A stretch of DNA of 64,000 nt from an uncultured Desulfovibrio sp. (GTDB lineage Bacteria > Desulfobacterota > Desulfovibrionia > Desulfovibrionales > Desulfovibrionaceae), in assembly GCA_934546745.1 (NCBI GenBank), contig CAKTDV010000009.1, positions 16,070 through 80,069 on the forward strand, given 5' to 3'. Numbering within the stretch: position 1 is the stretch's first letter; each line of letters begins with the position of its first letter. The notes beneath the pieces were generated by a model. It worked only from the letters and a program-made list of their open reading frames with translations, searched no databases and was not told where the DNA came from. Of this stretch, positions 8,971 to 64,000 are shown one piece after another. The translations under genes and the position numbers were made by a program.

Positions 8971-9026
8971 CAACATATCCTTTATGGGTTGAAACCACCC
9001 CTCGCGGGGGCATGGGCGTCACCGCG

Positions 9027-13866: not shown

Positions 13867-13896
13867 CGGAGGGGGCTTTTTCAAGATCCCCCTCCG
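13867..13896. terminator. Hairpin between convergent plsY and adh
   Basis: CGGAGGGGG-12 nt-CCCCCTCCG, a perfect 9-bp stem. Confidence 0.45.
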
Positions 13897-13949
13897 TCGT
13901 TTGATCCAGAGGCGGAGGCGCCGCCAACGGCTCCGGGAGCGTTACCGGA

Positions 13950-15005: not shown

Positions 15006-15182
15006 GTGAGGCTCCTTGTGGTGTTGTTGCATATGCGTGCGGGGGAGGGGGCTCCCCAACGTGTCGTAAAAAACAGTGCCACAGAATTTTTTTATCGTGT
15101 CCACAACGAAAAGTCAATTTTTCACAAGCGTGTTTCGGGGAGGTGGGCGGGGCGGCGGGAGTGTGCGTCGAAGCAAGGAAGA

Positions 15183-15221
15183 GGGGGAGAATCCTTCCCT
15201 TGCGTGGAAAGATTCTCCCCC
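15183..15221. terminator. Strong hairpin downstream of nrfA
   Basis: GGGGGAGAATC...GATTCTCCCCC inverted repeat, 30 nt after the nrfA stop. The better T-run is on the plus strand, so the orientation is ambiguous. Confidence 0.4.
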
Positions 15222-15252
15222 GTTTTTCGGCGTTTTCAGTTTTTTTACAGGC

Positions 15253-48575: not shown

Positions 48576-49739
48576 ATGTTTACCACATTACATAATGTCC
48601 GCGTGGCAGCCATACGATCGGCCGTACCGTCCCAGGAGATTCGTCTGGACGATGAGCTGGAATTTTATGGCGGCAGCGCCAGAAAAGTTGCCCGGCTCAA
48701 GACCACCCTTGGCATGGACAGACGCAGGGTATGCCCGGATGGCGTGACAGCTTCCGATTTGTGCGCGCATGCGGCGGAAGCGCTTTTCCATGCGTACTCC
48801 GATGCGCGGGGCGCTGTGGATGCGTTGATTTTCGTGAGCCAGTCCCCGGACTGGCGATCTCCGGCTACGGCATGTGAGCTGCAGCACCGCCTGGGTCTGC
48901 CGAAAAGCTGCGCCGCCCTTGATGTCAACCAGGGGTGCGCCGGGTATGTCTATGGTCTGTGGCTGGGCAGCGGTCTCGTTGCGTCCGGCGCGGCGCGGCG
49001 CGTGCTGCTTCTGGTTGGCGATGCCCATCCTTACGGGCGGGATGTGCGCAACCGCATTACCGCCTCCGTCTTCGGCGACGGCGGAAGCGCCACCCTGCTG
49101 GAGCGGGACGGGAACGCGGAACCCATGCGGTTCGGCCTCGGTACGGACGGCAGCGGCTTTGAAACGATTATCGTTCCCGCTGGGCAGGCCAGGCTCCCCT
49201 TTATCCGCGATGCGGCGAAAAATGAGCCGCTGGTCAGATCCACCCTTGATCCGGGCGGCAACCCCTGGCAGATGTGCGAAACATTCATGGACGGCGGCGC
49301 CGTCTTCAATTTCACGATGGATGTTGTCCCCGCGCATATGACGGAGCTGCTCGCGTATGCCGGTATGTCTTCCGGGGATATTGACTGGCTTCTGCTGCAT
49401 CAGGCCAACAGGCAGATTGTGGAGAACCTTGCCTCCAAGAGCGGTTTTCCTCTGGCAAAGGCTCCCGCCGAATCGTTTGGCAGGTACGGCAATACGGCGT
49501 CGGCATCCATTCCCATTGCGATATGCGATCGGTTCGGCAGCGGCGATGCTCTTTCCGGGAGGGTTCTTTTGTGTGGCTATGGCGTGGGATTGTCCTGGGC
49601 TTCCTGTCTGTGCCGCATGGACACTGTCAATTGCGCGCCTGTTCTTGATGTTGAGGCTGATCCCGCCCGCCCGTCCAGGGAAGATTTGATCAGGCGGTGG
49701 GAGCGAATCTTTAAGGGAGAGGAGAAACCTCATGACTAA
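48576..49739 (+). CDS. FabH-like beta-ketoacyl-ACP synthase III
   Basis: Cys-His-Asn triad contexts NQGCAGYVYG, LLHQANRQI and GNTASASIP. A 40-aa C-terminal extension is present. Confidence 0.8.
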   Translation: MFTTLHNVRVAAIRSAVPSQEIRLDDELEFYGGSARKVARLKTTLGMDRRRVCPDGVTASDLCAHAAEALFHAYSDARGAVDALIFVSQSPDWRSPATACELQHRLGLPKSCAALDVNQGCAGYVYGLWLGSGLVASGAARRVLLLVGDAHPYGRDVRNRITASVFGDGGSATLLERDGNAEPMRFGLGTDGSGFETIIVPAGQARLPFIRDAAKNEPLVRSTLDPGGNPWQMCETFMDGGAVFNFTMDVVPAHMTELLAYAGMSSGDIDWLLLHQANRQIVENLASKSGFPLAKAPAESFGRYGNTASASIPIAICDRFGSGDALSGRVLLCGYGVGLSWASCLCRMDTVNCAPVLDVEADPARPSREDLIRRWERIFKGEEKPHD

Positions 49740-49959
49740 ACAGGAATTTTTGGCGCTTCTTCAGGATATGCTGCAGTGTGATCGGGAGCTGGATGCGCAA
49801 ACGCCGCTGACGGATATGGAAGAGTGGGATTCGCTGGCCTTTATGGTGCTGATTTCCTTTTTTGACAAAAATTTTGGCCAGCGGATTACGTTCGATATGC
49901 TGAAGACGTGCCGGACGCCGGAAGATCTGGCGATGCTGAGCAACGGGGGCATCTCGTAA
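49732..49959 (+). CDS. Acyl carrier protein-like (75 aa)
   Basis: EEWDSLAFMVL phosphopantetheine Ser motif. The ATG overlaps the fabH-like stop, and a GGGAGAGGAG RBS is present. Confidence 0.75.
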   Translation: MTKQEFLALLQDMLQCDRELDAQTPLTDMEEWDSLAFMVLISFFDKNFGQRITFDMLKTCRTPEDLAMLSNGGIS

Positions 49960-49960
49960 G

Positions 49961-50704
49961 ATGTTTACCGCGCAACAGCGGATACTGGTTACGGGCGCCA
50001 GCTCCGGCATAGGGCGGGCCATAGCCCTGCGCTGCAATGCCCTTGGCGCGACGGTGCTGGCCAGCGGCCGCAATGCGGATCGTCTGGCTGAGGGGCGGCG
50101 CCAGGCTGTGGAGCCGTCCCGCTGGGTGTCCATTGAACGCGACCTGCTGGAAGATATGGAAACCTTGCCCGGCTGGGTTCGGGGCCTTGCCCGCGAGCAT
50201 GGCAAACTCTGGGGCTTGGCGCATGCCGCCGGGGACGGTTTGATGGACAGCCTGAGAACCTACGGGCTGGCGGAGGCGCGACGCCATTTCGATCTTGGGT
50301 TTCATATGCCGGTGCTGCTTGCGCAGGGCTTTTGCGACAGGCGCAGCAGCGAGGCGGGAGGCGCGCTTCTCTTTCTGACGTCGGCATCAGCCGTTTTTGC
50401 GGAAAAGGGCCATATGGTTTATGGCGCGGCCAAAGCGGCCGTGGCTGCCGCCGCCAAGGCCATAAGCCAGGAAGTGGCCCCGCGCCTGCGTGTGCATTGT
50501 CTGGCCCCCGGCATTGTGGATACGCCGCTGGAAGAGCGCGCCGAAGCCTATATGGGTTCCTCCTACAGGGAGGAGCAGCTGCGGGGCTACCCTTTCGGTT
50601 TCGGGCAGCCTGAGGATGTCGCGCACATGGCGGCCTTTCTGCTTTCAGATCAGGCCCGCTGGATTACGGGGCAGAACTTTGTTCTTGCCGGAGGGCGTTA
50701 CTGA
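49961..50704 (+). CDS. SDR-family oxidoreductase (FabG-like ketoreductase)
   Basis: TGASSGIGRA and YGAAKAA catalytic motifs. Confidence 0.85.
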   Translation: MFTAQQRILVTGASSGIGRAIALRCNALGATVLASGRNADRLAEGRRQAVEPSRWVSIERDLLEDMETLPGWVRGLAREHGKLWGLAHAAGDGLMDSLRTYGLAEARRHFDLGFHMPVLLAQGFCDRRSSEAGGALLFLTSASAVFAEKGHMVYGAAKAAVAAAAKAISQEVAPRLRVHCLAPGIVDTPLEERAEAYMGSSYREEQLRGYPFGFGQPEDVAHMAAFLLSDQARWITGQNFVLAGGRY

Positions 50705-51399
50705 TGCCCCATGTCGTCATTATCGGCAATGCCGGGGCCGCGCGGGAGTGCTACTGGATTTTTCAGGACATGCTGAACAGCTCGGTGGGATTGCGCTGCT
50801 ACTATACGTTCAGAGGCTTTCTGGACTGGCGGGGCCATGCGGGCGATCTCAAGGAGTTCAGCGCGTTGCATTTGGGAACCGCCGGGGAATACGTCATACA
50901 GCCTGACGATCTCTTTGTCATCGGGGTAGGGCATCCCCGGCTCCGCAAGGCAATTTTTGAAGACTTCAAGGCGCGCGGCGGCACGTTCATGAACCTGATT
51001 CATCCTTGGACGGATATCTGCCCGTCCGCCGTCCTTGGCGAGGGGAATGTCTTTCAGCGCGGCTGTACCGTCTACTGCAACGCCAGAATTGGGAATGCCA
51101 ATTACATCAACGGGGCCGTCAATCTTTCGCATGATGCGGAAATCGGCGATTTCAACTTTCTTGCGCCGTACTCGCTTGTGCTGGGAGGGGCAAAACTGGG
51201 CTCCTGCAATCATCTGGGGCCCCATGCCGTCATTCTTGATCATGCCCATGCGGGCGATGGCAACGTCTTTGCCGCGGCAAGCTGTCTTTACCGGGGCTGC
51301 CGCGATGATTGCCTCATGTCCGGCAATCCGGCCTTGAGGGTGGGGAAGGCGGCGGATGTGAACCTGCTGGGTGCTGTGCCGCCATCCAGCGCATCCTAG
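50704..51399 (+). CDS. NeuD/PglD-type hexapeptide sugar N-acyltransferase
   Basis: N-terminal VVIIGNAGAARE Rossmann-like lobe plus a C-terminal LbH. The start overlaps the SDR stop (ATGA-type overlap). Confidence 0.75.
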   Translation: MPHVVIIGNAGAARECYWIFQDMLNSSVGLRCYYTFRGFLDWRGHAGDLKEFSALHLGTAGEYVIQPDDLFVIGVGHPRLRKAIFEDFKARGGTFMNLIHPWTDICPSAVLGEGNVFQRGCTVYCNARIGNANYINGAVNLSHDAEIGDFNFLAPYSLVLGGAKLGSCNHLGPHAVILDHAHAGDGNVFAAASCLYRGCRDDCLMSGNPALRVGKAADVNLLGAVPPSSAS

Positions 51400-51421: not shown

Positions 51422-51458
51422 ACAGGCCTCCGGGAGTTTTCCCGGGGGCCTGTGTTTT
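51422..51458 (+). terminator. Hairpin plus T-run after the acylation cassette
   Basis: ACAGGCCTCCGGGA-GTTT-TCCCGGGGGCCTGT followed by GTTTT. Confidence 0.45.
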
Positions 51459-52981
51459 CAGGCGAGTGTCCTGAGGGAGGTGTTCTGTTCCGCAAGCTGG
51501 GCCAGCTGGCGCAGGAGCGCCGCGGTGTTGTCGCGCCTGTCCGCCTCAGCCTGAAGGGAATCCGCCGCCTCATGGTAGAGCCGCGCGATGTCCGTGGACG
51601 CCATATCCCCGTAACGGCGCGTTTCCTCCCCGTCTGGGAGACCGGCAAGACGTTGCAGCCAGGGGGGGAGGACAAGTTCCGGCGCGCGCCGCGCATGAAG
51701 GTGTATGGCAAAGACGGCCAGCGGACGGCTTTGAAAGTAGTAGGCGTAGTCATGGGCGTGCCCGAGGTGGAAGTGTCTCTCTTCCCGCAGAATGGCCATG
51801 ATAACCTTTGCCGCGGAAGCTCCCGGGCTGTTGCCGTCTCTGCGGATGACGAGCCAGTCCGGGTGCGGCCTGCCCGCGATGAAGTCCGCCAGATCATTGG
51901 CAAGGTCTTCCAGGGCGTGTGTAAAAGGAAGGTAGCCGAGGCTATTGATGAAGGCTTCCTTTTCCTGTTCGCTCCACAGGGGGGAATGCGCCAGCGCGTG
52001 TTTGGCAGCCAGCGTCAGTTTGGAAAAGGAATTTGCGGTGTAGAAAAGTCCCTCCCGGCGCAGACCGTTTGCCGTAATCCAGGGCTGGAAGTAGACGGCG
52101 GGCCTGTGGGTAATGGCGCTGAAGGTGCTTGCGATATGCGCAAAGTCCGTAATCATGACCTGCGCCCTGACGAAGGTCTCGAGGTAGCTTGTCTGTGTGT
52201 CGACGGCGAGGCGCGGCTCATGGGCGAAAGCGTCGATGATGTCCCTGACTGTCTCTTCTTCCCTGTTTATTGGTGTGGGTCTGAAAATGATAGTGTGGTC
52301 AGGAAAAGCGGCCAGCAGGGAACGCAGAATCCGTTTGCCATGTTTCTGGAGACGGTTCCCGCCATACTGAAGCGCATGGTGTATTTCCGTTGGCGCGTAG
52401 CAGATGCATTCCGCTTGGAGGCCTTCCCGTTGCTTCGCAAGGAATCGTCGCCGCACCAGACAGAGCTTGGGATAGCCGTAACCCATGAGATAAAAATTCA
52501 TTGCCGGGCGCAGGAGTCTTGCCGGGGGGGAAAAATTGTCCCAGAGCGCCTTGATTTCCTTTCTGCGCTGTTCAAAGGGAAAGCCTACGATAAGGCCGTC
52601 AAAGCTGAAGGACGTTATTGCTCCCTGCAGATAAGCCTGCGGATCTTGAGCCGAGGTACAGCTGTGCGTCATCGCCAGCACCCGCGAGGACGTGGGATAG
52701 CGCACAAATGATTCAAAGTCTGTCGCAATGAAGCAGGCGATACTGTCAAGCGTCTCCACCTCTTCGGGGCGCACCTGAAAGACATGACCAAGACCGTCAA
52801 GGTTCATGACGCCGATGGCCTCGCCCGCCAGGAGGCCGACGGTGCCGTATCCCCGCTCTTGCAGCTCCTTGCCGAGCGCTACCATCCATTCGTCGGGAAC
52901 GACATTGGTGTGCCCGATGTAAAAAGCGACGATTCTTTTTCCGGGAAAAAGATTGCCAATAGTGGTGCTGAGATCCGACAT
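51458..52981 (-). CDS. Paralogue A1 of a ~508-aa transferase family (TagF/glycerophosphotransferase-like C-terminal pattern; candidate phospho-group transferase)
   Basis: 507 aa. ...FRPTPINREEETVRDIIDAF...VMITDFAHIASTFSAITHRPAVYFQPW... About 75-80% identical to A2 by eye. Confidence 0.7.
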   Translation of the reverse strand: MSDLSTTIGNLFPGKRIVAFYIGHTNVVPDEWMVALGKELQERGYGTVGLLAGEAIGVMNLDGLGHVFQVRPEEVETLDSIACFIATDFESFVRYPTSSRVLAMTHSCTSAQDPQAYLQGAITSFSFDGLIVGFPFEQRRKEIKALWDNFSPPARLLRPAMNFYLMGYGYPKLCLVRRRFLAKQREGLQAECICYAPTEIHHALQYGGNRLQKHGKRILRSLLAAFPDHTIIFRPTPINREEETVRDIIDAFAHEPRLAVDTQTSYLETFVRAQVMITDFAHIASTFSAITHRPAVYFQPWITANGLRREGLFYTANSFSKLTLAAKHALAHSPLWSEQEKEAFINSLGYLPFTHALEDLANDLADFIAGRPHPDWLVIRRDGNSPGASAAKVIMAILREERHFHLGHAHDYAYYFQSRPLAVFAIHLHARRAPELVLPPWLQRLAGLPDGEETRRYGDMASTDIARLYHEAADSLQAEADRRDNTAALLRQLAQLAEQNTSLRTLA

Positions 52982-53013: not shown

Positions 53014-54540
53014 TTAGAGAGGGGTATTGTCCTCAACGAGCTTTGCCATTCGCCGTAGCAATGCGGCGGTCTCTTCGTTGGAGACATTTTTTTCCGCCCG
53101 CAATGCTGTTGCGGCTTGCCCGTACAGGTGGACAAGCTCCTGTGCGGATACGTCGCCAAACGTCACATGGCTTTCTGTCATCCCTGAAAGTGTTTTGATA
53201 TGTGGGGGGATAGGGATGTCTGGCGATCGCTGGCGATAGAGATGTGTGGCAAAGACGGCCAGCGGACGGCTTTGAAAATAGTCCGCGTAAAGCACGGCAT
53301 GATAGAGTTGAACACCCTTGTATTCTTGCAGGATGGTTTCCATTATTTTTGCGGCGGAGGCCCCCGGGCTGTTGGTGTCTCTGCGGATGACAAGCCAGTC
53401 CGGGCGCGGCCTGCCGTCGATGAAGCTGGCCAGATCATTGGCAAGGTCTTCCAGGGCATGTGTAAAAGGAAGGTAGCCGCTGGAGATGAGAAAGCGTTCC
53501 ATCTCTTCTTCCGCATACGTATGTGCCATGGCGTGCTTGATGGCGGAGATCAGTTCTGAAAACGTTGTTACCGTAGAGAGCGGGGAATTTCCATGGGGGT
53601 TGGAAGCCGTCATCCAGGGCTGGAAGTAGATGGCGGGCCTGTGGGTGACGGCGCAGAACGTGCCGGCGATATGCGCAAGGTCCGTAATCATGACCTGCGT
53701 CCTGACGAAGGTGTCGAGGTAGCTTGTCCGCGTGTCGACGGCGAGGCGCGGCTCATGGGCGAAAGCGTCGATGATGTCCCTGACGGTATCTTCATCCCTG
53801 TTTATTGGCGCGGGCCGGAAAATGACGGTATGCTCAGGAAAGGCGGCCAGTAGGGAACGCAGAATCCGTTTGCCATGTTTCTGGAGACGCTTTCCGCCCA
53901 AATAGGGGGTATACTGAATTCCCATTGGCGCGTAGCAGATGCATTCCGCCCTGACGGCTTCCCGCCGTTTCGCAAGGAATCGTCGCCGCATCAGGCAGAG
54001 TTTGGGGTAGCCGTAGCCCATGAGATAAAAGTCCGCCGATGGGCGCAGGAGTCTTGCCGGGGGGGAAAAATTATCCCAGAGATCCTTGATTTCTCCTTCG
54101 CGGGGCGCAAAGGGGAAGCCCACGATAAGGCCATCGAAGCTGCGGGTACTTATTGCGCCTTGCAGAAAAGCCCCCGGATCTCCGGGTGAACAGCTGTGCA
54201 CGATCGCCAGAACCCGTGATGTCTTTGGGTAGCGCATAGGCTTTTCAAAATTGGTATTATCAATGAAGCCTTCACAATCTGTCACAATGAAGCAGGCGAT
54301 ACTGTCAAGTGTCTCCACCTCTTCGGGGCGCACCTGAAAGACATGACCAAGACCGTCAAGGTTCATGACGCCGATGGCCTCGCCCGCCAGGAGGCCGACG
54401 GTGCCGTATCCCCGCTCTTGCAGCTCCTTGCCGAGGGCGACCATCCATTCGTCGGGAACGACATCCGTGTGACAGATATAGAAGGCGACCACGGTTTTGC
54501 CGTTGAAAAGTTCACGGATGCGGGCGTTGAGTTCTGACAC
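53014..54540 (-). CDS. Paralogue A2 of the same transferase family
   Basis: 508 aa from GTG 54540, with AAGGAGG 7 nt upstream and aligned to the A1 start. The longer track ORF adds 32 implausible residues. Confidence 0.7.
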   Translation of the reverse strand: MSELNARIRELFNGKTVVAFYICHTDVVPDEWMVALGKELQERGYGTVGLLAGEAIGVMNLDGLGHVFQVRPEEVETLDSIACFIVTDCEGFIDNTNFEKPMRYPKTSRVLAIVHSCSPGDPGAFLQGAISTRSFDGLIVGFPFAPREGEIKDLWDNFSPPARLLRPSADFYLMGYGYPKLCLMRRRFLAKRREAVRAECICYAPMGIQYTPYLGGKRLQKHGKRILRSLLAAFPEHTVIFRPAPINRDEDTVRDIIDAFAHEPRLAVDTRTSYLDTFVRTQVMITDLAHIAGTFCAVTHRPAIYFQPWMTASNPHGNSPLSTVTTFSELISAIKHAMAHTYAEEEMERFLISSGYLPFTHALEDLANDLASFIDGRPRPDWLVIRRDTNSPGASAAKIMETILQEYKGVQLYHAVLYADYFQSRPLAVFATHLYRQRSPDIPIPPHIKTLSGMTESHVTFGDVSAQELVHLYGQAATALRAEKNVSNEETAALLRRMAKLVEDNTPL

Positions 54541-54671
54541 GGAGTCCTCCTTGTGTTTCTTTTGCGGTAGATACGGAAAGAGCACTGTACAGACGATCGG
54601 GCGGGGTGTCAAGCCGACATCCGTTTTTTGGAACAATATTTGCTTTAGATGCTTCCAAGGGGGGAAATTTC

Positions 54672-55346
54672 ATGATTTTGACACGCCGCACAGGCATCAC
54701 CATGCGCGTCGTCCGTTCCGACTATGGAGAGACACGGGATGCGCTGGCGCGCGACTGGCCGGTGCTGCTGGAACGGCTGGGGCACGTTTATGGTTTTGCG
54801 CCGGAGTGGTTCCCGCTGCCCAATATGGGCGAGGACAGCGTTGCCCTTGCGCGCCGCTACGGCGTCCGGGCCTTGCTCCTGACTGGCGGCGACGACAGAG
54901 GCGCTACGCCGGATCGTGACCTTACGGAAGAGGCACTCCTGCGCTGGGCCGCCGGGGAGCGTCTGCCGGTGCTCGGTGTCTGCCGGGGCGCGCAGATGCT
55001 GGCCCGGCAGGCCGGGGCGGCGCTCATCGCCGTACACCCCGGTAGGCATGTGGCCGCGCGGCATCGCATTGTCTGGAATACGGACGGGAACGGCGGGCCC
55101 TTCTGGAACAGCGCGCTTGCCGCGCGGGATACGGAAGAGGTCAACTCCTTCCACCGGTGGGGGCTTTCCGGCACGGCGCTTCCGGCGAACCTCCATGCCG
55201 TTGCCGTCTGTCCCGAAGACGGAAGCGTCGAGGCGTTCTGTCATGTCTCCCTGCCGTGGATGGGCGTTTTCTGGCATCCCGAACGGGAGGCAACACCCCG
55301 CGAGAGCGATATGGCGATCCTGCGCCATCTCTTTGCGGAGGCCTGA
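54672..55346 (+). CDS. Class-I glutamine-amidotransferase-like / peptidase C26 hydrolase (cj1417-like)
   Basis: Nucleophile elbow LGVCRGAQML and His-Glu motif VFWHPE. 224 aa. Confidence 0.75.
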   Translation: MILTRRTGITMRVVRSDYGETRDALARDWPVLLERLGHVYGFAPEWFPLPNMGEDSVALARRYGVRALLLTGGDDRGATPDRDLTEEALLRWAAGERLPVLGVCRGAQMLARQAGAALIAVHPGRHVAARHRIVWNTDGNGGPFWNSALAARDTEEVNSFHRWGLSGTALPANLHAVAVCPEDGSVEAFCHVSLPWMGVFWHPEREATPRESDMAILRHLFAEA

Positions 55347-55437
55347 AAAAGCGTTTCGTGGCGTCGTCCGTTGGCGCAGGCCGCCGGTCTTCCCCGCACA
55401 GGGCGGGGGGGAAAAGATTTCCAGAAAGGGAGTTCGC

Positions 55438-57855
55438 GTGAGTGAGGATAAGAAAGAAAGAAGCAAATCCGGAACCAAGGCGGAAACGCTGGAGCTTCTG
55501 CTCCGTCACGGTTTTCCCGTGCCGCCGTTGCGCTATGTTACCAAAGAGCGCTGGGACGCCGTACCGGATGCCGTGCTCGCCGAAATACGCGCCGCGTTTC
55601 CGCAAACGCCGCTGGCCGTGCGTTCCTCGGCATGTCAGGAGGACGGTTGCGCCGCCTCGCTGGCCGGAGCCTTTGACAGTGTGCTGCATGTGCCGTCGCA
55701 GGATGCGGCGGCATTGCGGGCCGCCATCGTCAAAGTGGCGTCCCGCTACGGCAGCGCGGCGGATCAGATTCTGATCCAGCCCATGATACCTCATGTGGCC
55801 CTGAGCGGCGTCGTCATGACGCGCACGCTGGAGGACGGTTCCCCCTACTACGTCATCAACTACGACGATGTTTCCGGGCGGACGGATACCGTTACCGGCG
55901 GCAGCGGCATCAGCAAGACGGTGTGCGTCTACCGGGGAGCCAGGGCGGAATATTTCGACTCGCCGCGCCTGCGGGCGGTGCTGGATCTGGTGCGCCGGCT
56001 TGAGGACTTCTTTTCAGGATTGCCGCTGGACATTGAGTTTGTCGTGGATGCGCGCGGCGCCACGCATCTGTTGCAGGCGCGTCCCATTGCCGCCGCGCGG
56101 CACTGGCGTTCGCAGGTGGCGGAGGATGTCTCCCGGCACATCCGGCACGTGGAGACCTACGCGCGCGACATCATGGCGGAACGTCCCGGCCTGCCGGGCA
56201 GGCGCAGTCTGCTTGGCGTCATGCCGGACTGGAACCCGGCGGAGATTATCGGCGTCACGCCGCGTCCGCTGGCCCTGAGCCTGTACCGGGACATCATCAC
56301 CCGCCGTGTCTGGCGGGTGGCCCGGCAGCACATGGGCTATCGCGCCCTGCCGCCGGTGGAACTGATGGTCTCGCTTGCGGGGCGGCCCTATATCGACGTG
56401 CGCGCAAGCTTCAGCTCCTTTCTTCCCGAAGGCGTTTCCCGGCAGACGGCGGCCCTGCTCACGGACGCCTGGCTTGATCGCCTTGACACGCATCCCGAAC
56501 TGCATGATAAGGTGGAGTTCGCCATTGTGCCCACCGTGCTGGATTTTGACTTTGACGCCACCTTCCGGGAGCGCTATGGGGATGTGCTCCCCCCGGCGGA
56601 ACGGCTGCGGTACAAGGCCGCCCTGCGCCGCCTGACAAACCGGGCCTTGCGTGTTTCCGGCATGTGCCCCGCAGAGGGAAGCCTGGAAAAGGCCATGAAC
56701 GACGCGCAATTGCTGGAACTGCGGCAACGCGCGCTCATGCCGCCCGTCATGCCGTCCGATTCGCGGGAAGGCACGCCGTTCTCGCTGGTGGCCCGGCTGA
56801 GCACCCTGCTGGAGGAATGCAGGGAATGGGGAACGCTGCCTTTCTCCATTGCCGCGCGCCATGCCTTCATGGCGGAAAGCCTGCTGCGATCCGCCGTGCG
56901 GCGCGGCGCGGTGCGGGAGGAGCGCCTTGCGGCCTTCAAGCGTTCCGTGCGCACCGTTTCCGGCGAATTGTCGCGGGACTTTGCCGAAGCTGTCCGCAAC
57001 CCGGCGATGCGGGGGGATTTCATGGCGCGCTACGGGCACTTGCGGCCCGGCACGTATGACATCCTGACGCCCTGCTATGCGCAACGCGATCTGTTCAGCC
57101 ATGTGGCGGCCCCCCAGGAAGCGCCACCGGTGGCGGCATTCAGCCTCACCGCGCGGGAAAGCGACGATCTTTCCCGGCTTCTGGATGAGGCCGGGCTGGA
57201 CTGCGCGCCGCGACGCCTGCTGGACTATGCGCGGCGCGCCATTGCCGGAAGGGAATGGATCAAGTTTGTTTTTACGCGCCATGTGTGCGCCATTCTTGAG
57301 ACCGTGGCCGCATGGGGGCAGTGTCAGGGGCTTGATCGCGAGGACTGCGCCATGCTGCCGCTGGAAGTCATGACGGGCAGTCTGAACGCGCCGTTGCCCG
57401 ACGAGGCGCGGGCGTACTACGGGGCCGTTATCGAGGAACAGCGCCGCCAGCACGATCTGGCCCGCTCCCTGCGGCTTGCGCCCCTGATCCGTTCCGTGCG
57501 CGACGTCTATGTGGCGGCGCAGCAGCGCAGCGAGCCTAATTTCATCACCGACAGGCATATTGAGGCGCCGGTGGCCGCGCTGGACGGCCACGCCATGCCA
57601 GAATCGCTTCAGGGACGCATCGTGTGCATCGAAAGCGCGGATCCCGGCTATGACTGGCTCTTTACCCGCGACATCGCCGGGCTGGTCACCCGCTACGGCG
57701 GCGTCAATTCCCATATGGCCATCCGCTGCGCGGAATACGGCCTGCCCGCGGCCATCGGTTGCGGCGGCATTCTCTACGAGCGGGCCAGCCGCGCCACAAG
57801 GCTGTTGCTGGATTGCGCGGGAAAACGTATAACCCCGCTGGGGGCGGAGGTGTAA
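55438..57855 (+). CDS. PEP-utilising/PPDK-like three-domain phosphotransferase (cj1418 L-glutamine-kinase-like)
   Basis: N-terminal ATP-grasp-type PPDK_N region (KAETLELL...VRSSACQEDG...SLAGAFDSV). The C-terminal swivel carries the phospho-His context RYGGVNSHMAIRCAEYGLPA. GTG start after GAAAGGGAG. 805 aa. Confidence 0.75.
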   Translation: MSEDKKERSKSGTKAETLELLLRHGFPVPPLRYVTKERWDAVPDAVLAEIRAAFPQTPLAVRSSACQEDGCAASLAGAFDSVLHVPSQDAAALRAAIVKVASRYGSAADQILIQPMIPHVALSGVVMTRTLEDGSPYYVINYDDVSGRTDTVTGGSGISKTVCVYRGARAEYFDSPRLRAVLDLVRRLEDFFSGLPLDIEFVVDARGATHLLQARPIAAARHWRSQVAEDVSRHIRHVETYARDIMAERPGLPGRRSLLGVMPDWNPAEIIGVTPRPLALSLYRDIITRRVWRVARQHMGYRALPPVELMVSLAGRPYIDVRASFSSFLPEGVSRQTAALLTDAWLDRLDTHPELHDKVEFAIVPTVLDFDFDATFRERYGDVLPPAERLRYKAALRRLTNRALRVSGMCPAEGSLEKAMNDAQLLELRQRALMPPVMPSDSREGTPFSLVARLSTLLEECREWGTLPFSIAARHAFMAESLLRSAVRRGAVREERLAAFKRSVRTVSGELSRDFAEAVRNPAMRGDFMARYGHLRPGTYDILTPCYAQRDLFSHVAAPQEAPPVAAFSLTARESDDLSRLLDEAGLDCAPRRLLDYARRAIAGREWIKFVFTRHVCAILETVAAWGQCQGLDREDCAMLPLEVMTGSLNAPLPDEARAYYGAVIEEQRRQHDLARSLRLAPLIRSVRDVYVAAQQRSEPNFITDRHIEAPVAALDGHAMPESLQGRIVCIESADPGYDWLFTRDIAGLVTRYGGVNSHMAIRCAEYGLPAAIGCGGILYERASRATRLLLDCAGKRITPLGAEV

Positions 57856-57859
57856 GCCC

Positions 57860-58648
57860 ATGATTGCGTTGATTCTTGCGGCGGGACGCGGATCCCGCCT
57901 CCGGGAACTGACCGACGGCAGGCCCAAATGTCTGGTACCCCTCGCGGGAAAACCTCTGCTGCGCTGGCAGTGCGACGCCCTGCGGAACGCGGGTGCACGG
58001 CGTCTGCTGGTCGTGCGCGGCTATCTGGCGGATCGCCTTGTGCCGGAGGCGGCGGGCCTGCCCGCGGGCGCCTTTGAAACCGCCCTCAATCCGCAATGGG
58101 AACACAGCAACATGCTTTCGTCCCTGCTCTGTGCCGGGCCGTGGCTGGAGGCGGCCTTTGCCGCCGGGGAAAGGGAGGCGGTCATCAGCTATGCGGATAT
58201 CGTCTATCCGGCGGATCATGTCCGTACCCTGTGCGCCTTGGGCGGCGATGCGCCCCTTGCCATTACCTATGATACGCAATGGGAGGCGCTCTGGCGCGTC
58301 CGCTTTGCCGATCCCCTGTCGGACGCCGAAAGTTTCGCCTGCAGGGACGGCGAGTTGATCGACATTGGCCGCGCTCCGCGCCGTCTGGAGGATGTGCAGG
58401 GGCAGTATATGGGGCTTCTGCGGGTGACGCCGCGGGGGTGGGAGGCCGTGGCCGCCGCCTGTCGCGATCTTGGCGCGGCGGTCGCCCGTACCGATATGAC
58501 GGGCTTTTTGCGCCTCCTGCTGGAACGGCGCGTGCCCATCGCCACGGCGGCGGTGGCGGGGCGCTGGTGCGAGGTGGACAGCCAGGACGATTTGCGCGCC
58601 TATGAGGCGAAGCTGCGACAGGGCGGCTGGAGCCATGACTGGCGGTAG
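57860..58648 (+). CDS. Nucleotidyltransferase (cj1416 cytidylyltransferase-like)
   Basis: MIALILAAGRGSRLRELTDGRPKCLVPLAG is the signature NTP-transferase loop. Confidence 0.8.
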   Translation: MIALILAAGRGSRLRELTDGRPKCLVPLAGKPLLRWQCDALRNAGARRLLVVRGYLADRLVPEAAGLPAGAFETALNPQWEHSNMLSSLLCAGPWLEAAFAAGEREAVISYADIVYPADHVRTLCALGGDAPLAITYDTQWEALWRVRFADPLSDAESFACRDGELIDIGRAPRRLEDVQGQYMGLLRVTPRGWEAVAAACRDLGAAVARTDMTGFLRLLLERRVPIATAAVAGRWCEVDSQDDLRAYEAKLRQGGWSHDWR

Positions 58649-58689
58649 GCCGGTTGTGTGCGCACAATGCAAAAGAAAAAGGAGATGAC

Positions 58690-59442
58690 ATGAAAACGGA
58701 ATGGGATTATACGACGCTGGCGCAGGGGTATCTGAAACGCCCTGAATATGCGCCGGATGCCCTGAGGCAGATTTTTCAGATTGCCGGACTGCATCCTGGG
58801 GATACGGTGTGCGATATTGGCGCGGGTGTGGCGCATCTGACTCTTCCTCTGGCGGCATTTGGCTGCCGCGTGGACGCCGTGGAACCCAACGACGCCATGA
58901 GGGAACTGGGGAAACGGCGTACCGCCAACCTTGACGGTGTCCAATGGTTTGAGGGAACCGGGGAGGATACCGGACGTCCCTCCGGGATATATGACTTCGT
59001 TTCGTTCGGTTCCTCCTTCAACGTGTGTGATCGCGCCAAATCTCTTGTGGAAACGCACCGTCTGCTCAAGCCCGGCAAATGGTTCGTCTGCCTGTGGAAC
59101 CACAGGAATCTGGAGGATCCTGTGCAGCGGGCCATAGAAGGCATCATCAGGGAGGCCATTCCCGACTATGCCTACGGTACGCGGCGGGAGGATCAGACAG
59201 AGGTGATCACGGCGTCCGGTCTGTTTACGGATATCACGCCCGTACAGGGAGCGGTGCGGCACCGGCAGACACCGGAGGATATTGTGGAGGCATGGCGCTC
59301 CCATTCCACCCTGCACCGTCAGGCCTGTGAAAAATTCGACGCCATTGTTGCCCGGATTGAGAAGTATGTTACCGGGCTTGGTCAGGCGGAGATTGAGATC
59401 CCCTATACGACGCACGCCTGGGTTGCGCGCCGCGCGGGCTAG
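58690..59442 (+). CDS. Class I SAM-dependent methyltransferase
   Basis: VCDIGAGVAHL motif I. ATG 58690 follows AAAGGAG; the track ORF starts at an upstream TTG. Confidence 0.8.
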   Translation: MKTEWDYTTLAQGYLKRPEYAPDALRQIFQIAGLHPGDTVCDIGAGVAHLTLPLAAFGCRVDAVEPNDAMRELGKRRTANLDGVQWFEGTGEDTGRPSGIYDFVSFGSSFNVCDRAKSLVETHRLLKPGKWFVCLWNHRNLEDPVQRAIEGIIREAIPDYAYGTRREDQTEVITASGLFTDITPVQGAVRHRQTPEDIVEAWRSHSTLHRQACEKFDAIVARIEKYVTGLGQAEIEIPYTTHAWVARRAG

Positions 59443-59446
59443 CGCC

Positions 59447-59986
59447 ATGACGCCAGACGCGCATAACGGACGGGTGATCTGGATTACCGGCCTTTCCGGC
59501 GCGGGAAAGAGCACCCTTGCCCGCGCCCTGATGGAACATCTGCCGGGGGCTCTGCTGCTGGACGGCGACGATCTGCGGGCCGTGCTGGGCGCGACGGCCT
59601 CCGGTTTTGACCGTGCCGGACGTCTGGCGCTGGCCCAGACCTACGCCCGTCTCTGCAGGCTGCTGGCGGAACAGGGGCACACCGTCGTCATGGCGACCAT
59701 CTCCCTGTTTCACGAAATCCATGCGTGGAACAGGGAGAACCTGCCCGGCTATCTGGAAGTCTTTCTGGACGTGCCCGAAGCCGTGCGCAGGGAACGCGAT
59801 CCCAAGGGGCTTTATGCCGCGGCAACGGCGGGAACGCTGCGTCATATGGCCGGGGCGGAAACCGCGGTCGATGTGCCGCAAGCACCGGATCTGGTATTGC
59901 CAACAGCCGAAATGACGCTGGAAGAATGCGTGGCCGCCGTGCGGGAACGTCTTGGGGCAGTGGCGGCCGGCCTTCCGCGACGCTGA
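59447..59986 (+). CDS. Adenylylsulfate-kinase-fold P-loop kinase (cj1415 cytidine-diphosphoramidate-kinase-like)
   Basis: VIWITGLSGAGKSTLA, LDGDDLR. 179 aa. No cysD/N/H partners are nearby. Confidence 0.8.
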   Translation: MTPDAHNGRVIWITGLSGAGKSTLARALMEHLPGALLLDGDDLRAVLGATASGFDRAGRLALAQTYARLCRLLAEQGHTVVMATISLFHEIHAWNRENLPGYLEVFLDVPEAVRRERDPKGLYAAATAGTLRHMAGAETAVDVPQAPDLVLPTAEMTLEECVAAVRERLGAVAAGLPRR

Positions 59987-60027
59987 CGGGAGTTTCTCCC
60001 ACCACGTGGGAAATGCGACAGCTCCAC

Positions 60028-60079
60028 AAAACAGAGAAGCCGTTTGCCGTACTTTTCCGGCAAACGGCTTCTCTGTTTT
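60028..60079. terminator. Bidirectional terminator (22-bp perfect stem) between convergent operons
   Basis: AAAACAGAGAAGCCGTTTGCCG-8 nt-CGGCAAACGGCTTCTCTGTTTT. Confidence 0.7.
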
Positions 60080-60092
60080 GCGCGGGGAAGCC

Positions 60093-61619
60093 TTATGGCG
60101 TTTCTGCCGTTTCCGCCGGAGAGAGAATGTCGCCGTATGCCTGTTCCACGACGGCGGCCAGCGCATGGCAAAAAACCGTCCTGTCCCTGTCCGGTAGCAG
60201 GATATGGCGGGACGGCTGTTTTTTCTGTTCCGTGCGGCACAGGGATTCGTGTTGCCGGATAAATGTCTGCGTTTCTGGGCAGTAATCGCTTATGGGTGCT
60301 GGGCGAAAAAAGGGCGAAAGTGTTGTTTCAGGCAGCATGAGGCGGGTACGCCCCTCCTGTGTACTGACGGACAGCAGCAGCGGTTTTTTCCAGTAGAAGC
60401 GAATACTCATGTGCTTATAGAAATTGTTCAGCGCTTGGAAGAGGGGAAAACGGCATAGGGGTTCATAATACAAATCAGGACGGCAGGCGCGCAGGGTGCG
60501 CAGGAAAAAGCCAACTTCCTCCGCCGGAGTGGTAAGCTCCATGTCTCCTATGTAGTCGCAGGGGAGCGCAACGGCGTCGCTGGGGACGGCGCCGGAAAGA
60601 ATCTGTGCCAGATAGTGGAAAAAAAGCTCCCGGCTGTGCCCGGGGCGGAAGATGAGCTTTTCCCGCAGGGCGGCGAGTTCCGGGTGATCGCCGTTTTTCC
60701 AGGCAAGGCTGGACTGGAGGGCCAGAAGCATGTCCTCAGGGGTGCGCACGGGAGAAAAGAGATCGTTCGCATCCCATGCTCTGGGCATGTTTCGGCTGGG
60801 GAGGAAGACGGCGGGCTGTCCTGTGGCCAGCGCAAAGAGTTGTCCTGTTGTGGAGGTGTGATCGCAGAGCAGGGCGATCGCGGAAGCCATGTGGCGCAGT
60901 GTGCTGCGGCTGCTGTCCATACGAAAGCGTTTTGTCGTGCGGAAGGCCGTTGCCAGAGGTTCGTAGCGGGGGCGTTCGCCGGGGAAGGGGCGCAACACGA
61001 AATCGTACTGTGGGAAATGGGTCAGGCACGCATCGATGAAGGCTTTGCGTTCCTCCATGAGGAGCGGAACGCCATGCGCGCTGTGGCCGCAGGTATACAG
61101 AATCGTTGCCCTGTGTGGTTCCGCAAGCCAGCGCCGGCGGAGTTCGTCAAGCTTGAGGCAGCCAAACGGCAGCAGATAAAGCTCCTCCCGGCGGCGTCCT
61201 GATGTCAGGCGTGGAAAGGACGGGGGAACGGCGCCCCCGTCCTGCGTCAGATAATAGTCCGCATTGCCGACATAGGACGGATAAATTTGGAGCATATGTT
61301 CCGTATGCGGCGGGGGAAACCAGAACGCATGGGGCAGGGCAAGCAGTGGTACTTCAGGGGGAACGAGATTTATGGGCGCGGACTGATCCAAGGTAAAAGC
61401 CGCCCGCACGTGCTCTTTTTCAAAAAAGTCCGGGGGCAGCGTTGCCGGAGAAAAATCTCCAGTAGCTGGTCGTGGCGTCATATCCGTATAGACGCGGGTG
61501 ATCCGCCCGCCGCGTTCTTCCAGCAGAGGGCGGATGCTTTCGTCGAGGCGGTGCATATAGACGGAATTTGCAAGGAAGACATAGCTTCCGGAAAAGTCGA
61601 AGGCATCAGTGGCGATCAT
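60093..61619 (-). CDS. Paralogue B1 of a second ~508-aa transferase group (distantly similar to A1/A2)
   Basis: 508 aa. ...FVLRPFPGERPRYEPLATAF...ALLCDHTSTTGQLFALATGQPAVFLP... AAGGAG RBS. Confidence 0.7.
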   Translation of the reverse strand: MIATDAFDFSGSYVFLANSVYMHRLDESIRPLLEERGGRITRVYTDMTPRPATGDFSPATLPPDFFEKEHVRAAFTLDQSAPINLVPPEVPLLALPHAFWFPPPHTEHMLQIYPSYVGNADYYLTQDGGAVPPSFPRLTSGRRREELYLLPFGCLKLDELRRRWLAEPHRATILYTCGHSAHGVPLLMEERKAFIDACLTHFPQYDFVLRPFPGERPRYEPLATAFRTTKRFRMDSSRSTLRHMASAIALLCDHTSTTGQLFALATGQPAVFLPSRNMPRAWDANDLFSPVRTPEDMLLALQSSLAWKNGDHPELAALREKLIFRPGHSRELFFHYLAQILSGAVPSDAVALPCDYIGDMELTTPAEEVGFFLRTLRACRPDLYYEPLCRFPLFQALNNFYKHMSIRFYWKKPLLLSVSTQEGRTRLMLPETTLSPFFRPAPISDYCPETQTFIRQHESLCRTEQKKQPSRHILLPDRDRTVFCHALAAVVEQAYGDILSPAETAETP

Positions 61620-61644: not shown

Positions 61645-63171
61645 TTATGGCGTCTTCGCCGTTTCCGCCGGAGCGAGAATGTCGCCGAATGCCTGTTCCA
61701 CGACGGCGGCCAGCGCATGACAGAAAACCGTTTTGTCCCTGTCCGGCAACAGGATATGGCGGGATGGCTCTCTTTCCTGTTCCGTGCGGCACAGGGATTC
61801 GTGTTGCCGGATAAATGTCTGCGTTTCTGGGGAGTAATCGCTCATGGGCGCGGGGCGGAAAAAGGGCGAAAGCGTTGTTTCAGGCAGCATGAGGCGGGTC
61901 TGTCCGTCCTCTTTGCTGATGGACAGCAGCAGCGGTTTGTGCTGTTGGAAGCGAGTATTGAGCTGCTGGTAGAAATTGGCCAGCGCCTGGTAGAGGGGAA
62001 AGCGCCGCAGCGGCTCATAATAGCAGTCAGGACGGTTGGCGCGCAAGGTGCGCAGGAAAAAGCCAACTTCCTCCGCCGGAGTGGTAAGCTCCATGTCTCC
62101 TATGTAGTCGCAGGGGAGCGCAACGGCGTCGCTGGGGACGGCGCCGGAAAGAATCTGTGCCAGATAGTGGAAAAAAAGCTCCCGGCTGTGCCCGGGGCGG
62201 AAGATGAGCTTTTCCCGCAGGGCGGCGAGTTCCGGGTGATCGCCGTTTTTCCAGGCAAGGCTGGACTGGAGGGCCAGAAGCATGTCCTCAGGGGTGCGCA
62301 CGGGAGAAAAGAGATCGTTCGCATCCCATGCTCTGGGCATGTTTCGGCTGGGGAGGAAGACGGCGGGCTGTCCTGTGGCCAGCGCAAAGAGTTGTCCTGT
62401 TGTGGAGGTGTGATCGCAGAGCAGGGCGATCGCGGAAGCCATGTGGCGCAGTGTGCTGCGGCTGCTGTCCATACGAAAGCGTTTTGTCGTGCGGAAGGCC
62501 GTTGCCAGAGGTTCGTAGCGGGGGCGTTCGCCGGGGAAGGGGCGCAACACGAAATCGTACTGTGGGAAATGGGTCAGGCACGCATCGATGAAGGCTTTGC
62601 GTTCCTCCATGAGGAGCGGAACGCCATGCGCGCTGTGGCCGCAGGTATACAGAATCGTTGCCCTGTGTGGTTCCGCAAGCCAGCGCCGGCGGAGTTCGTC
62701 AAGCTTGAGGCAGCCAAACGGCAGCAGATAAAGCTCCTCCCGGCGGCGTCCTGATGTCAGGCGTGGAAAGGACGGGGGAACGGCGCCCCCGTCCTGCGTC
62801 AGATAATAGTCCGCATTGCCGACATAGGACGGATAAATTTGGAGCATATGTTCCGTATGCGGCGGGGGAAACCAGAACGCATGGGGCAGGGCAAGCAGTG
62901 GTACTTCAGGGGGAACGAGATTTATGGGCGCGGACTGATCCAAGGTAAAAGCCGCCCGCACGTGCTCTTTTTCAAAAAAGTCCGGGGGCAGCGTTGCCGG
63001 AGAAAAATCTCCAGTAGCTGGTCGTGGCGTCATATCCGTATAGACGCGGGTGATCCGCCCGCCGCGTTCTTCCAGCAGAGGGCGGATGCTTTCGTCGAGG
63101 CGGTGCATATAGACGGAATTTGCAAGGAAGACATAGCGTCCGGAAAAGTCGAAGGCAGTGGCGGCGATCAT
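61645..63171 (-). CDS. Paralogue B2, identical to B1 over residues ~12-375 with a divergent C-terminal ~135 aa
   Basis: Start set at MIAATAFDF (ATG 63171) by alignment with B1. The track ORF's extra 108 N-terminal residues look non-coding for this gene. Confidence 0.7.
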   Translation of the reverse strand: MIAATAFDFSGRYVFLANSVYMHRLDESIRPLLEERGGRITRVYTDMTPRPATGDFSPATLPPDFFEKEHVRAAFTLDQSAPINLVPPEVPLLALPHAFWFPPPHTEHMLQIYPSYVGNADYYLTQDGGAVPPSFPRLTSGRRREELYLLPFGCLKLDELRRRWLAEPHRATILYTCGHSAHGVPLLMEERKAFIDACLTHFPQYDFVLRPFPGERPRYEPLATAFRTTKRFRMDSSRSTLRHMASAIALLCDHTSTTGQLFALATGQPAVFLPSRNMPRAWDANDLFSPVRTPEDMLLALQSSLAWKNGDHPELAALREKLIFRPGHSRELFFHYLAQILSGAVPSDAVALPCDYIGDMELTTPAEEVGFFLRTLRANRPDCYYEPLRRFPLYQALANFYQQLNTRFQQHKPLLLSISKEDGQTRLMLPETTLSPFFRPAPMSDYSPETQTFIRQHESLCRTEQEREPSRHILLPDRDKTVFCHALAAVVEQAFGDILAPAETAKTP

Positions 63172-63194: not shown

Positions 63195-64000
63195 TCAGGT
63201 GGGCGGATTGACATCCAGGAACCACATATACGCCCGTCCGTTCGTATTGGGTCCGTATTGTCGGAGCTGCTGAAGCTGAGTTGGCCGTCCCAGCAAAGGT
63301 AGCGGCCTTCTCCGGCGGCGGCGATGGCTTCCCGAGGCGCGGAGGCAAAGGGGAGCCATTCGCCATCCTCCATGAGGCGCACCCTCCAGGGGGCGACATC
63401 CGCGGGAAGCGGCAGCGGGCAGGCATACGTATGGCCGGAGACATGCTCAAACGGTTTTTCCAGAGGCGTATGTTGCCTGGCTGAGAGGATGGCATCCCAG
63501 AAATCGCCTGCCGCGCTCCGTTCCTCGCCGTTCTTCTGGCGTTGGTGCGCCGCTCAGGGAATAGTTGAGGTAGTTCGTATAACTGTAGAGGGCAAGATAC
63601 AGCAACCTGTTGGCTTTGCAGGGCAGTGTGGCGTTGTGGACAGCCCTTGCCATATTCCCGGTATGGTGCAGCACCCCCCAGGAATAGACGATGTCCACAG
63701 GCGGCAGGCTCCGCAGAAAATCTTCGTTGAGGGCGTCTCCCCGCAGGATGGTCCAGTTTTTGGGGGAGCCTGCCTGACGGTGGAGTTCCTGCGTCGCGGC
63801 TACGGAATGGGGATCGTAGTCAAAGCTGACGATGGGGCCGGCCCCGGCGCGCCACGCCGCCAGCGAACTCAGGCCGCTGCCGCAGCCGATGTCCAGAAAG
63901 CTGAGCCCGGCAAGCGAGAGATCCTCCCGTCCGAGAAAGCGGCAAAGGTCCCTCCGGGACTGCCGTATTGTTTCCTCATTGAGATGGTGGCGGATAAACG
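63195..64000 (-). pseudogene. Class I SAM methyltransferase with C-terminal extension, apparently disrupted by frameshift(s); 5' end outside the window
   Basis: Frame 1 reads ...LDIGCGSGLSSLAAW...VYSWGVLHHTGN... and stops at 63447. Protein-like sequence continues in another frame with no start codon (GDFWDAILSARQHTPLEKPFEHVSGHTYACPL...GRYLCWDGQLSFSSSDNTDPIRTDGR). A third frame (NTNGRAYMWFLDVNPPT*) stops at 63195, 23 nt before the B2 start. Confidence 0.5.

Follow-up and report, generated by a model that had tools for sequence, protein, structure and literature searches.

Reviews treat O-methyl phosphoramidate (MeOPN) sugars and glutamine kinase as Campylobacter-specific, and according to one of them (PMC6429109) MeOPN sugars have been 'only identified in Campylobacter'. 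Both serum resistance and the invasion of epithelial cells by C. jejuni are affected by MeOPN (PMC3907429), and a MeOPN-recognising phage is reported in a paper cited by PMC9561416. The pathway roles of Cj1415-Cj1418 and of Cj1421/Cj1422 are summarised in PMC11800397 and PMC3907429. The stretch analysed here (the window) is 64 kb of DNA from a human-gut Desulfovibrio of the D. piger group and contains, at positions 54672-59986, a five-gene operon with counterparts of the C. jejuni genes. Judged from sequence comparison, this operon probably makes the MeOPN donor in gut Desulfovibrio, with four flanking proteins of about 508 amino acids (aa) being the best local transferase candidates.

The initial annotation of the window had listed five consecutive open reading frames (ORFs) on the plus strand of a Desulfovibrio-like genome. 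The coordinates were reproduced by an ORF listing, all of the quoted motifs (GVCRG, FWHPE, GGVNSHMAIRCAEYGLPA, LILAAGRGSRL and ITGLSGAGKST) were found, and window proteins fall into 90% clusters named 'Desulfovibrio sp.' and 'Desulfovibrio piger'. Identical copies of window proteins occur in assemblies of NCBI, ENA and Logan. The genes of the operon are as follows:

54672-55346, plus strand: Cj1417-like class-I amidotransferase-fold hydrolase, 224 aa (Pfam Peptidase_C26/GATase)
55438-57855, plus strand: Cj1418-like enzyme resembling pyruvate phosphate dikinase (PPDK), 805 aa (Pfam PPDK_N and PEP-utilizers)
57860-58648, plus strand: Cj1416-like nucleotidyltransferase, 262 aa (Pfam NTP_transf_3)
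58690-59442, plus strand: Cj1419-type S-adenosylmethionine-dependent methyltransferase, 250 aa (Pfam Methyltransf_11)
59447-59986, plus strand: Cj1415-like kinase with adenosine 5'-phosphosulfate (APS) kinase fold, 179 aa (Pfam APS_kinase)

The intergenic spacings are, in order, 91, 4, 41 and 4 nucleotides (nt), and the same five protein lengths are found in the gene calls of a sister strain (L079).

The capsule locus of C. jejuni assembly GCA_032998785.1 (L082) was used as comparator. It was reached via PCR primers from PMC3907429. Primer CS-351 matched one metagenome stretch of 26.6% guanine-cytosine (GC) content that encodes a 558-aa fragment, 32% identical to the 805-aa enzyme of the window. 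This fragment led to P0304, a 779-aa protein under the name Campylobacter jejuni whose cluster comprises 4,885 sequences. P0304 is Cj1418, and it led on to the locus. The gene order in L082 is transferase (619 aa)-Cj1420-Cj1419-Cj1418-Cj1417-Cj1416-Cj1415-KpsC-KpsS, in which the gene names are fixed because primer CS-1247 (cj1420) falls in the 257-aa methyltransferase gene. An exact scan of the genome contigs with the cj1420 primer from PMC3907429 gave no match, and the primer lists of PMC8437040 yielded only peptides of 11-13 aa. A degenerate scan with the peptide DKPEADLV was discarded, as its 72 matches are at chance level and 0/72 encode a cassette protein. No structures of Cj1415-Cj1418 were found by a PDB sequence search with the window proteins.

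In BLASTP comparisons, the 805-aa enzyme aligns to Cj1418 with 33% identity over 806 aa (E 3e-146), the nucleotidyltransferase to Cj1416 with 33% over 254 aa (E 2e-51), the kinase to Cj1415 with 34% over 169 aa (E 6e-36) and the hydrolase to Cj1417 with 27% over 224 aa (E 1e-23). In the reverse search of the 64-kb window, each Cj protein matches its counterpart gene alone. The 805-aa enzyme scores 857 bits on NF004508 (L-glutamine kinase), for which Cj1418 reaches 1172 bits and the cut-off is 501. An assignment as phosphoenolpyruvate (PEP) synthase, PPDK or rifampicin phosphotransferase was rejected, since the corresponding NCBIfam models give at most 51 bits against cut-offs of 598-1700; the solved structures of rifampicin phosphotransferase (RPH) and PEP synthase align at 34 bits and over short stretches only. 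The enzyme is thus specifically Cj1418-like, as initially proposed. His759 is aligned to residue 737 of Cj1418, likewise a His and presumably the phosphorylated residue of that enzyme. The motif around both, IAGL(I/V)T.YGG.NSHMAIR..E.G.PA.IG, is nearly invariant. The nucleotidyltransferase matches Cj1416 over its full length, whereas other nucleotidyltransferases align over approximately residues 1-60 only, including the nearest solved structure, LicC, which is aligned at residues 3-59 only. As in Cj1417, the hydrolase retains the class-I amidotransferase Cys in G(V/I)CRGAQ and the His-x-Glu in WHxERE.

The same set of genes recurs in other genomes. An exhaustive HMMER search recovered glutamine kinase homologues in 1,502 clusters (50% identity) at E<=1e-30, and these are mostly full length. 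Named relatives are found in Maridesulfovibrio, Nitratidesulfovibrio, Solidesulfovibrio and Desulfocurvus, usually annotated as 'PEP-utilizing enzyme'; one JGI record carries the name 'glutamine kinase'. The rarity implied by the initial annotation was therefore overstated, as homologues are common in public Desulfovibrionaceae genomes. At least 29 of the 37 long glutamine kinase representatives carry an N-terminal domain that is homologous to the whole nucleotidyltransferase of the window. Other gut Desulfovibrionaceae (L001-L004, L095), a Nitratidesulfovibrio-like locus (L088) and Alphaproteobacteria (L090) have the genes for glutamine kinase, amidotransferase-fold hydrolase (GATase), nucleotidyltransferase and kinase in one contiguous block. 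A Fibrobacterota genome (CP064986.1, L089) has two extra genes (185 and 257 aa) between nucleotidyltransferase and kinase. Every cassette locus compared sits within sugar-modification genes. Between the window and the sister strain, the five operon genes share 95-100% protein identity with a ratio of nonsynonymous to synonymous substitution rates (dN/dS) of 0-0.21 and a dS of 0.005-0.13; the donor operon is under purifying selection.

The claim that the gene set corresponds to the cj1415-cj1419 donor pathway is borne out by BLASTP, by common best NCBIfam families, by conserved catalytic residues and by the cross-phylum cassette. Going by these matches, five neighbouring genes, each matching another member of one pathway, cannot be explained by chance. 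An operon for the MeOPN donor is well supported by homology, residues, synteny and selection, because the matches are full-length, the cassette recurs, fusions occur and selection is purifying.

Trios of GATase, nucleotidyltransferase and glutamine kinase genes are also located at approximately 8567-12403 on two AT-rich IMG/VR contigs that are labelled as metagenome-assembled genomes (MAGs) of giant viruses (L091, L092), and no Cj1415-like kinase is found within 10 kb of the trio in either. Going by the contig labels only, the putative giant-virus glutamine kinase shows 37% identity to Cj1418 in an 805-aa alignment. A glutamine kinase homologue with 51% identity (P0057) comes, by its annotation, from a plasmid of 'Deltaproteobacteria bacterium Smac51', and some lineages may therefore have a mobile cassette.

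The methyltransferase of the operon is closer to Cj1419 (40% over 250 aa, E 4e-62) than to Cj1420 (34.5%, E 3e-42), and its best solved structure reaches 34 bits only. It is 70% identical to the Cj1419-type copy of L095, where copies of the Cj1419 and the Cj1420 type stand side by side in the cassette (13673-15265), as in C. jejuni. L001 has a Cj1420-type copy only (13195-13965, 40% identical to Cj1420), and the window a Cj1419-type copy only. With both types in one genome and a single type, one or the other, in two more, the distribution suggests that Cj1419- and Cj1420-type proteins are redundant MeOPN methyltransferases. Cj1419 and Cj1420 are without assigned function, single knock-outs having left the capsule unchanged (PMC11800397), and redundancy could explain this result.

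By analogy with Campylobacter, the 805-aa enzyme is predicted to be an L-glutamine kinase that would catalyse the ATP-dependent N-phosphorylation of L-glutamine. The nucleotidyltransferase, as predicted CTP:phosphoglutamine cytidylyltransferase, would join this product with CTP to give L-glutamine linked to cytidine diphosphate (CDP-L-glutamine), from which the C26-type enzyme, a predicted gamma-glutamyl-CDP-amidate hydrolase, would remove glutamate to yield cytidine diphosphoramidate. The kinase is predicted to be a cytidine diphosphoramidate 3'-kinase, the weakest of the five assignments; phosphorylation of the 3'-OH would give 3'-phospho-cytidine-5'-diphosphoramidate, an activated donor similar to 3'-phosphoadenosine-5'-phosphosulfate (PAPS). 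The Cj1419-type methyltransferase is predicted to O-methylate the phosphoramidate and could add the methyl group either before or after transfer. The phosphoramidate would be placed on a sugar of the glycan that is made by the surrounding, strain-variable island. We infer all of the enzymatic activities as well as product and acceptor, and most of all what the 508-aa proteins do.

The observations that weigh against this reading concern the kinase, the substrate specificity and the transferase. The kinase could be a genuine APS kinase (CysC), in which case the cluster would perform sulfation via PAPS and no phosphoramidate chemistry. Its Pfam APS_kinase match is strong (105 bits) and its closest solved relatives are APS kinases. 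It scores 98.8 bits with Cj1415 (phmmer) and 89.7 bits with the best APS kinase, and Cj1415 itself scores 106 bits with its best (archaeal) APS kinase, so that the two families cannot be told apart by pairwise scores. Tree support for a separation from APS kinases is weak, the neighbour-joining clade of cassette kinases including Cj1415 having 42% bootstrap support. On the level of curated families, however, the window kinase passes NF004041, the subfamily containing Cj1415 (162 bits, Cj1415 291, cut-off 127), and misses the apsK model TIGR00455, as does Cj1415 (118.8 and 127 bits, cut-off 138.7). Three solved APS kinases have the motif (I/V)SPY...AR; it is replaced by ISLF...WNR in the window kinase, in line with the IS[LM]F...[WY]NR that is common to 5/5 cassette-linked kinases. 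As the initial annotation had noted, sulfate-assimilation partners are missing: no sulfate-activation gene, sulfate adenylyltransferase included, was seen among the window ORFs scanned. The assignment is decided by context, as the kinase is co-operonic with the Cj1416-Cj1418 counterparts and as a kinase domain with 54% identity to it is fused to glutamine kinase in one representative (P0209). Sulfation via CysC was dropped on the grounds of NF004041, apsK and the shared operon, and is regarded as highly improbable.

With respect to substrate specificity, the window hydrolase is far below the equivalog cut-off of NF045546 (gamma-glutamyl-CDP-amidate hydrolase), with 80 bits (E 2e-22) against a cut-off of 250 and 329 bits for Cj1417, yet this is its top NCBIfam family. 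Since identities to C. jejuni are only 27-40% across the operon, substrate specificity could have shifted. The enzymes might then make another phospho-compound activated by CDP or a different nucleoside diphosphate, or the phosphorus-nitrogen (P-N) group might be placed on a protein glycan or small molecule and not on capsule or lipopolysaccharide. Consistent with such a divergence, the cassette locus of the Nitratidesulfovibrio-like genome contains NeuB, DegT and formyltransferase genes, typical of nonulosonic-acid glycans, and the Fibrobacterota cassette includes the two extra genes mentioned above. The literature search gave no chemical evidence that any Desulfovibrio has a P-N glycan; it returned no paper for 'O-methyl phosphoramidate' together with Desulfovibrio and a single one, on an unrelated topic, for 'phosphoramidate' together with Desulfovibrio. 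On the other hand, the four donor enzymes occur together across phyla and also as fusions, the catalytic motifs hardly differ from the Cj1418 ones, and the local neighbours are sugar-modifying enzymes. Diverged substrates are therefore considered unlikely, and synthesis of the MeOPN donor remains the preferred explanation of the operon.

In the transferase step of the proposed pathway, the window departs from C. jejuni. The candidates are encoded on both sides of the operon:

51458-52981, minus strand: A1, 507 aa, candidate phosphoramidate transferase (67% identical to A2)
53014-54540, minus strand: A2, 508 aa, candidate phosphoramidate transferase (homologous to pair B)
60093-61619, minus strand: B1, candidate phosphoramidate transferase with GT-B fold (AlphaFold2 model)
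61645-63171, minus strand: B2, tandem copy of B1 (94% aa identity to B1)

The initial annotation had described four paralogous ORFs of about 508 aa. The coordinates hold, but the paralogy is not equal, as the proteins form two pairs with the internal identities given above, and pair A aligns to pair B with 27% identity over 191 aa (E 6e-8; hhalign probability 96.8% over 231 columns). The suggestion that these flanks mirror cj1420-cj1422 could not be upheld. Against the C. jejuni MeOPN transferase, the 508-aa proteins give E>1 in BLASTP and a probability of 0.15-0.2% in hhalign. The C. jejuni transferase scores 747 bits on NF058596 (CJJ1420_fam; Pfam DUF8374 and DUF2972), and the four 508-aa proteins have no match to any NCBIfam model at E up to 0.01, NF058596 included. 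They have no Pfam family either; two of them, compared with Pfam at E up to 10, gave one unrelated chance-level match and neither DUF2972 nor PF04464. Homology to Cj1421/Cj1422 was thus rejected on the basis of BLASTP, hhalign and the NF058596/DUF2972 profiles. No CJJ1420-like gene was found by tblastn in the 64-kb window or among the recorded Pfam families of 21.5 kb of sister-strain DNA around the locus.

Pair B has 28 detectable relatives among 5.8 billion proteins, and a profile of the 508-aa family returned only noise from the PDB sequences. The AlphaFold2 model of B1 (predicted local distance difference test score, pLDDT, 86; predicted template modelling score, pTM, 0.82) has a GT-B fold with two Rossmann domains. 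It matches 216 PDB chains at E<=0.001 in Foldseek, and GT-B enzymes make up 50/50 among the matches listed. UDP-GlcNAc 2-epimerases, MurG, TagF and WaaA are found with E of about 1e-7 and template modelling (TM) scores of 0.3-0.5. The model of A2 is poor (pLDDT 58), and its top Foldseek matches, H. influenzae Bcs3 (CMP complex) and TagF, are a hint only. A His is invariant in the family (His97 in pair B, His115 in pair A). TagF moves a phosphoryl-linked group from a CDP-X donor with release of CMP, and a CDP-amidate donor would require this type of reaction. The 508-aa proteins could accordingly be pictured as catalysing a TagF-like attack on the terminal phosphorus of the CDP-linked donor, while their diverged C-terminal domains would select different acceptors.

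Between B1 and B2, nt 151-1050 of the gene show 100% identity and the 3' third 82-92%. This pattern fits a common catalytic core with different acceptor-binding ends; the identity over 900 nt could be due to a recent conversion event in the core or to an assembly artefact from a collapsed repeat. Compared with the sister strain, the 508-aa genes (dS 0.24-0.42, dN/dS 0.27-0.31) diverge far more than the operon and are still under purifying selection. Phase variation by homopolymer tracts was rejected for these genes, in which the longest tract is a G7, a length that occurs elsewhere in the window too. The longest homopolymer of the window is a G9 at 272-280 within the ORF 76-1308, a possible slipped-strand switch.

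It is quite conceivable, though not the explanation preferred here, that the donor is made but that the GT-B proteins of 508 aa function as ordinary transferases of glycosyl or alditol-phosphate groups in building the glycan backbone, the true phosphoramidate transferase being encoded elsewhere or belonging to another family. Besides lacking any similarity to the CJJ1420 family, the 508-aa proteins find only generic GT-B enzymes at the TM scores given above, and relatives with 40-45% identity stand alone at another chromosomal site; an HD-GYP regulator lies on one side of them and an MFS/ogt/BamA-TamB block on the other, and a cassette is absent from the surrounding 10 kb. Other cassettes adjoin different candidates. 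Directly 5' of the Nitratidesulfovibrio-like cassette, a sulfotransferase-fold protein is encoded (8503-9909; Sulfotransfer_3, 32 bits, cut-off 27), a natural candidate user of a PAPS-like 3'-phospho-CDP-amidate, and in our view a 3'-phosphorylated donor suits the sulfotransferase fold better than GT-B. A DUF3179 protein is coupled directly upstream of the cassette in two gut Desulfovibrionaceae (L001:8171-9280 and L095:7804-9087), with an NAD-dependent epimerase before it. Two further genomes have an extra ORF between the hydrolase and glutamine kinase genes (L002:8882-9910, 342 aa; L003:8868-9710, 280 aa). The 342-aa ORF has a near full-length but weak match (E 0.02) to DUF2972, with which the MeOPN transferases of C. 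jejuni end at the C-terminus.

Conversely, the 508-aa genes are located on both sides of the operon, the window has no other adjacent transferase-like gene, and neither the window nor the sister-strain record contains a CJJ1420-like one. Moreover, the kinase gene of the Fibrobacterota cassette overlaps at its stop with the start of the next gene, which encodes a 1326-aa protein without Pfam family (L089:13612-17592) comprising two copies of the core of the 508-aa family. It is matched by the hidden Markov models (HMMs) of A1 (E 1e-23) and A2 (E 7e-18) and is 40% identical to A1 over 89 aa (E 2.5e-15). As this two-domain relative, translationally coupled in another phylum, directly follows the cassette kinase, a role of the 508-aa proteins as phosphoramidate transferases is plausible. 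Judging from the position of the four genes only, P-N groups might be placed on a surface glycan at up to four positions.

The operon and its flanks are part of a glycan island, whose further features are:

48585-49739, plus strand: FabH-like ketoacyl-ACP synthase III at the left island edge (Pfam ACP_syn_III, ACP_syn_III_C)
49732-49959, plus strand: acyl carrier protein (ACP), 75 aa (Pfam PP-binding)
49961-50704, plus strand: short-chain dehydrogenase/ketoreductase (Pfam adh_short_C2)
50704-51399, plus strand: NeuD/PglD-like sugar N-acyltransferase (TIGR03570 118.7 bits, cut-off 160.8; Hexapep, PglD_N)
54541-54671, no strand: divergent intergenic region between A2 and the operon, a 131-nt gap
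60027-60080, no strand: hairpin of a bidirectional intrinsic terminator where the kinase and B1 genes converge, with a perfect 23-bp stem and A/U runs on either side
63207-63998, minus strand: fragmented methyltransferase remnant of a 394-aa gene that runs off the window end (tblastn pieces)

Left of approximately 48.6 kb, housekeeping genes are found, including LysO, arginase and panB. Together, the FabH-like, ACP, ketoreductase and NeuD/PglD-like genes hint at an amino sugar that is N-acylated; the 90% cluster of the NeuD/PglD-like gene includes 'transferase [Desulfovibrio piger]'. The hairpin (-42.3 kcal/mol, z -9.6) is kept in the sister strain and closes the operon. A promoter-like site is present at 54612-54584 on the minus strand, and the count of such sites in 54541-54671 is not above that of shuffled sequences. 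The GC content is mosaic, with 0.66-0.68 for the four donor genes, 0.59 for the methyltransferase and 0.56-0.60 for the 508-aa genes.

The second methyltransferase that the initial annotation had placed in the flank is the fragmented remnant only and is unrelated to Cj1419/Cj1420. Its pieces correspond to aa 14-144, 297-385 and 380-394 of the L079 methyltransferase in different frames, with 71% nt identity. In the sister strain, this 394-aa gene is intact and adjoins a 687-aa GT2 gene that is absent from the window. The island of the sister strain continues with a GT2 gene, methyltransferases, AsnB and two GT4 genes. Flanking genes share 65-94% protein identity between the two strains and the donor operon 95-100%, so the flanks look like exchangeable, serotype-like modules.

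By bioinformatic criteria, the donor genes are widespread, and some of them already carry automatic annotations. As a common gut commensal has a complete donor operon under selection, P-N glycans may belong to the ordinary gut glycome, which would matter for pre-existing immunity to MeOPN epitopes and for phage host range. The locus also offers a lead on two open Campylobacter questions, namely which enzyme methylates MeOPN and whether transferases of unrelated folds can use 3'-phospho-CDP-amidate. A bolder interpretation, which is tentative and rather doubtful at present, is that the 508-aa proteins are a second, TagF-like class of phosphoramidate transferases that evolved independently of the CJJ1420 family, and that an abundant human-gut sulfate reducer displays MeOPN at several positions of a surface glycan that varies between strains. 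If true, MeOPN would be no hallmark of Campylobacter but a widespread surface chemistry, extending to Fibrobacterota, Alphaproteobacteria and perhaps giant viruses. Recognition by phages, resistance to complement and cross-reactivity with antibodies from MeOPN-directed C. jejuni vaccines would all be concerned, and the lone Cj1419-type methyltransferase would identify the long-unassigned MeOPN O-methyltransferase.

Among the known systems that share folds with the locus, PEP synthase, PPDK and rifampicin phosphotransferase have the same N-terminal ATP-grasp (PPDK_N) and C-terminal phosphohistidine swivel domain as the 805-aa enzyme, whose central ~500 residues, in contrast, align with the Cj1418 family only. 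The PAPS pathway shares the kinase fold and the logic of a 3'-phosphorylated nucleotide donor, and the Nitratidesulfovibrio-like cassette is preceded by a sulfotransferase-fold protein; the window differs in that its kinase is placed in the Cj1415 subfamily by NF004041 while remaining under the apsK cut-off, and in that neither an ATP sulfurylase gene nearby nor a sulfotransferase-fold gene is present. TagF, TarL and Bcs3 resemble pair B in the GT-B fold, with TagF among the top TM scores of the model (0.40/0.48), but no Glyphos_transf (PF04464) match was obtained at E up to 10 for the two 508-aa proteins compared, and UDP-GlcNAc 2-epimerases and MurG fit the model equally well. Cj1416/1417/1418-like trios outside Campylobacter are likewise reported for Borg elements (bioRxiv 10.1101/2024.11.05.622173) and seen on the giant-virus MAG contigs; there, the host context is another one and the assignments are by structure prediction only.

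The closest system is the cj1415-cj1422 locus of C. jejuni. Cj1415-Cj1418 and a Cj1419-type methyltransferase all have full-length counterparts in the window operon, both loci lie within a glycan biosynthesis region, and each has several copies of its transferase candidates, which vary more than its donor genes do. The gene order differs (1417-1418-1416-1419-1415 in the window, 1420-1419-1418-1417-1416-1415 in C. jejuni), as does the number of methyltransferases, one in the window and two in C. jejuni. The place of the CJJ1420-family transferases is taken by unrelated GT-B-fold proteins whose genes are without long homopolymer tracts, and the KpsC/KpsS capsule-export genes that stand beside the C. 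jejuni locus are not adjacent in the window. The Desulfovibrio system is best described as a MeOPN variant that shares the donor enzymes, has a single methyltransferase and differs in the candidate transferases.

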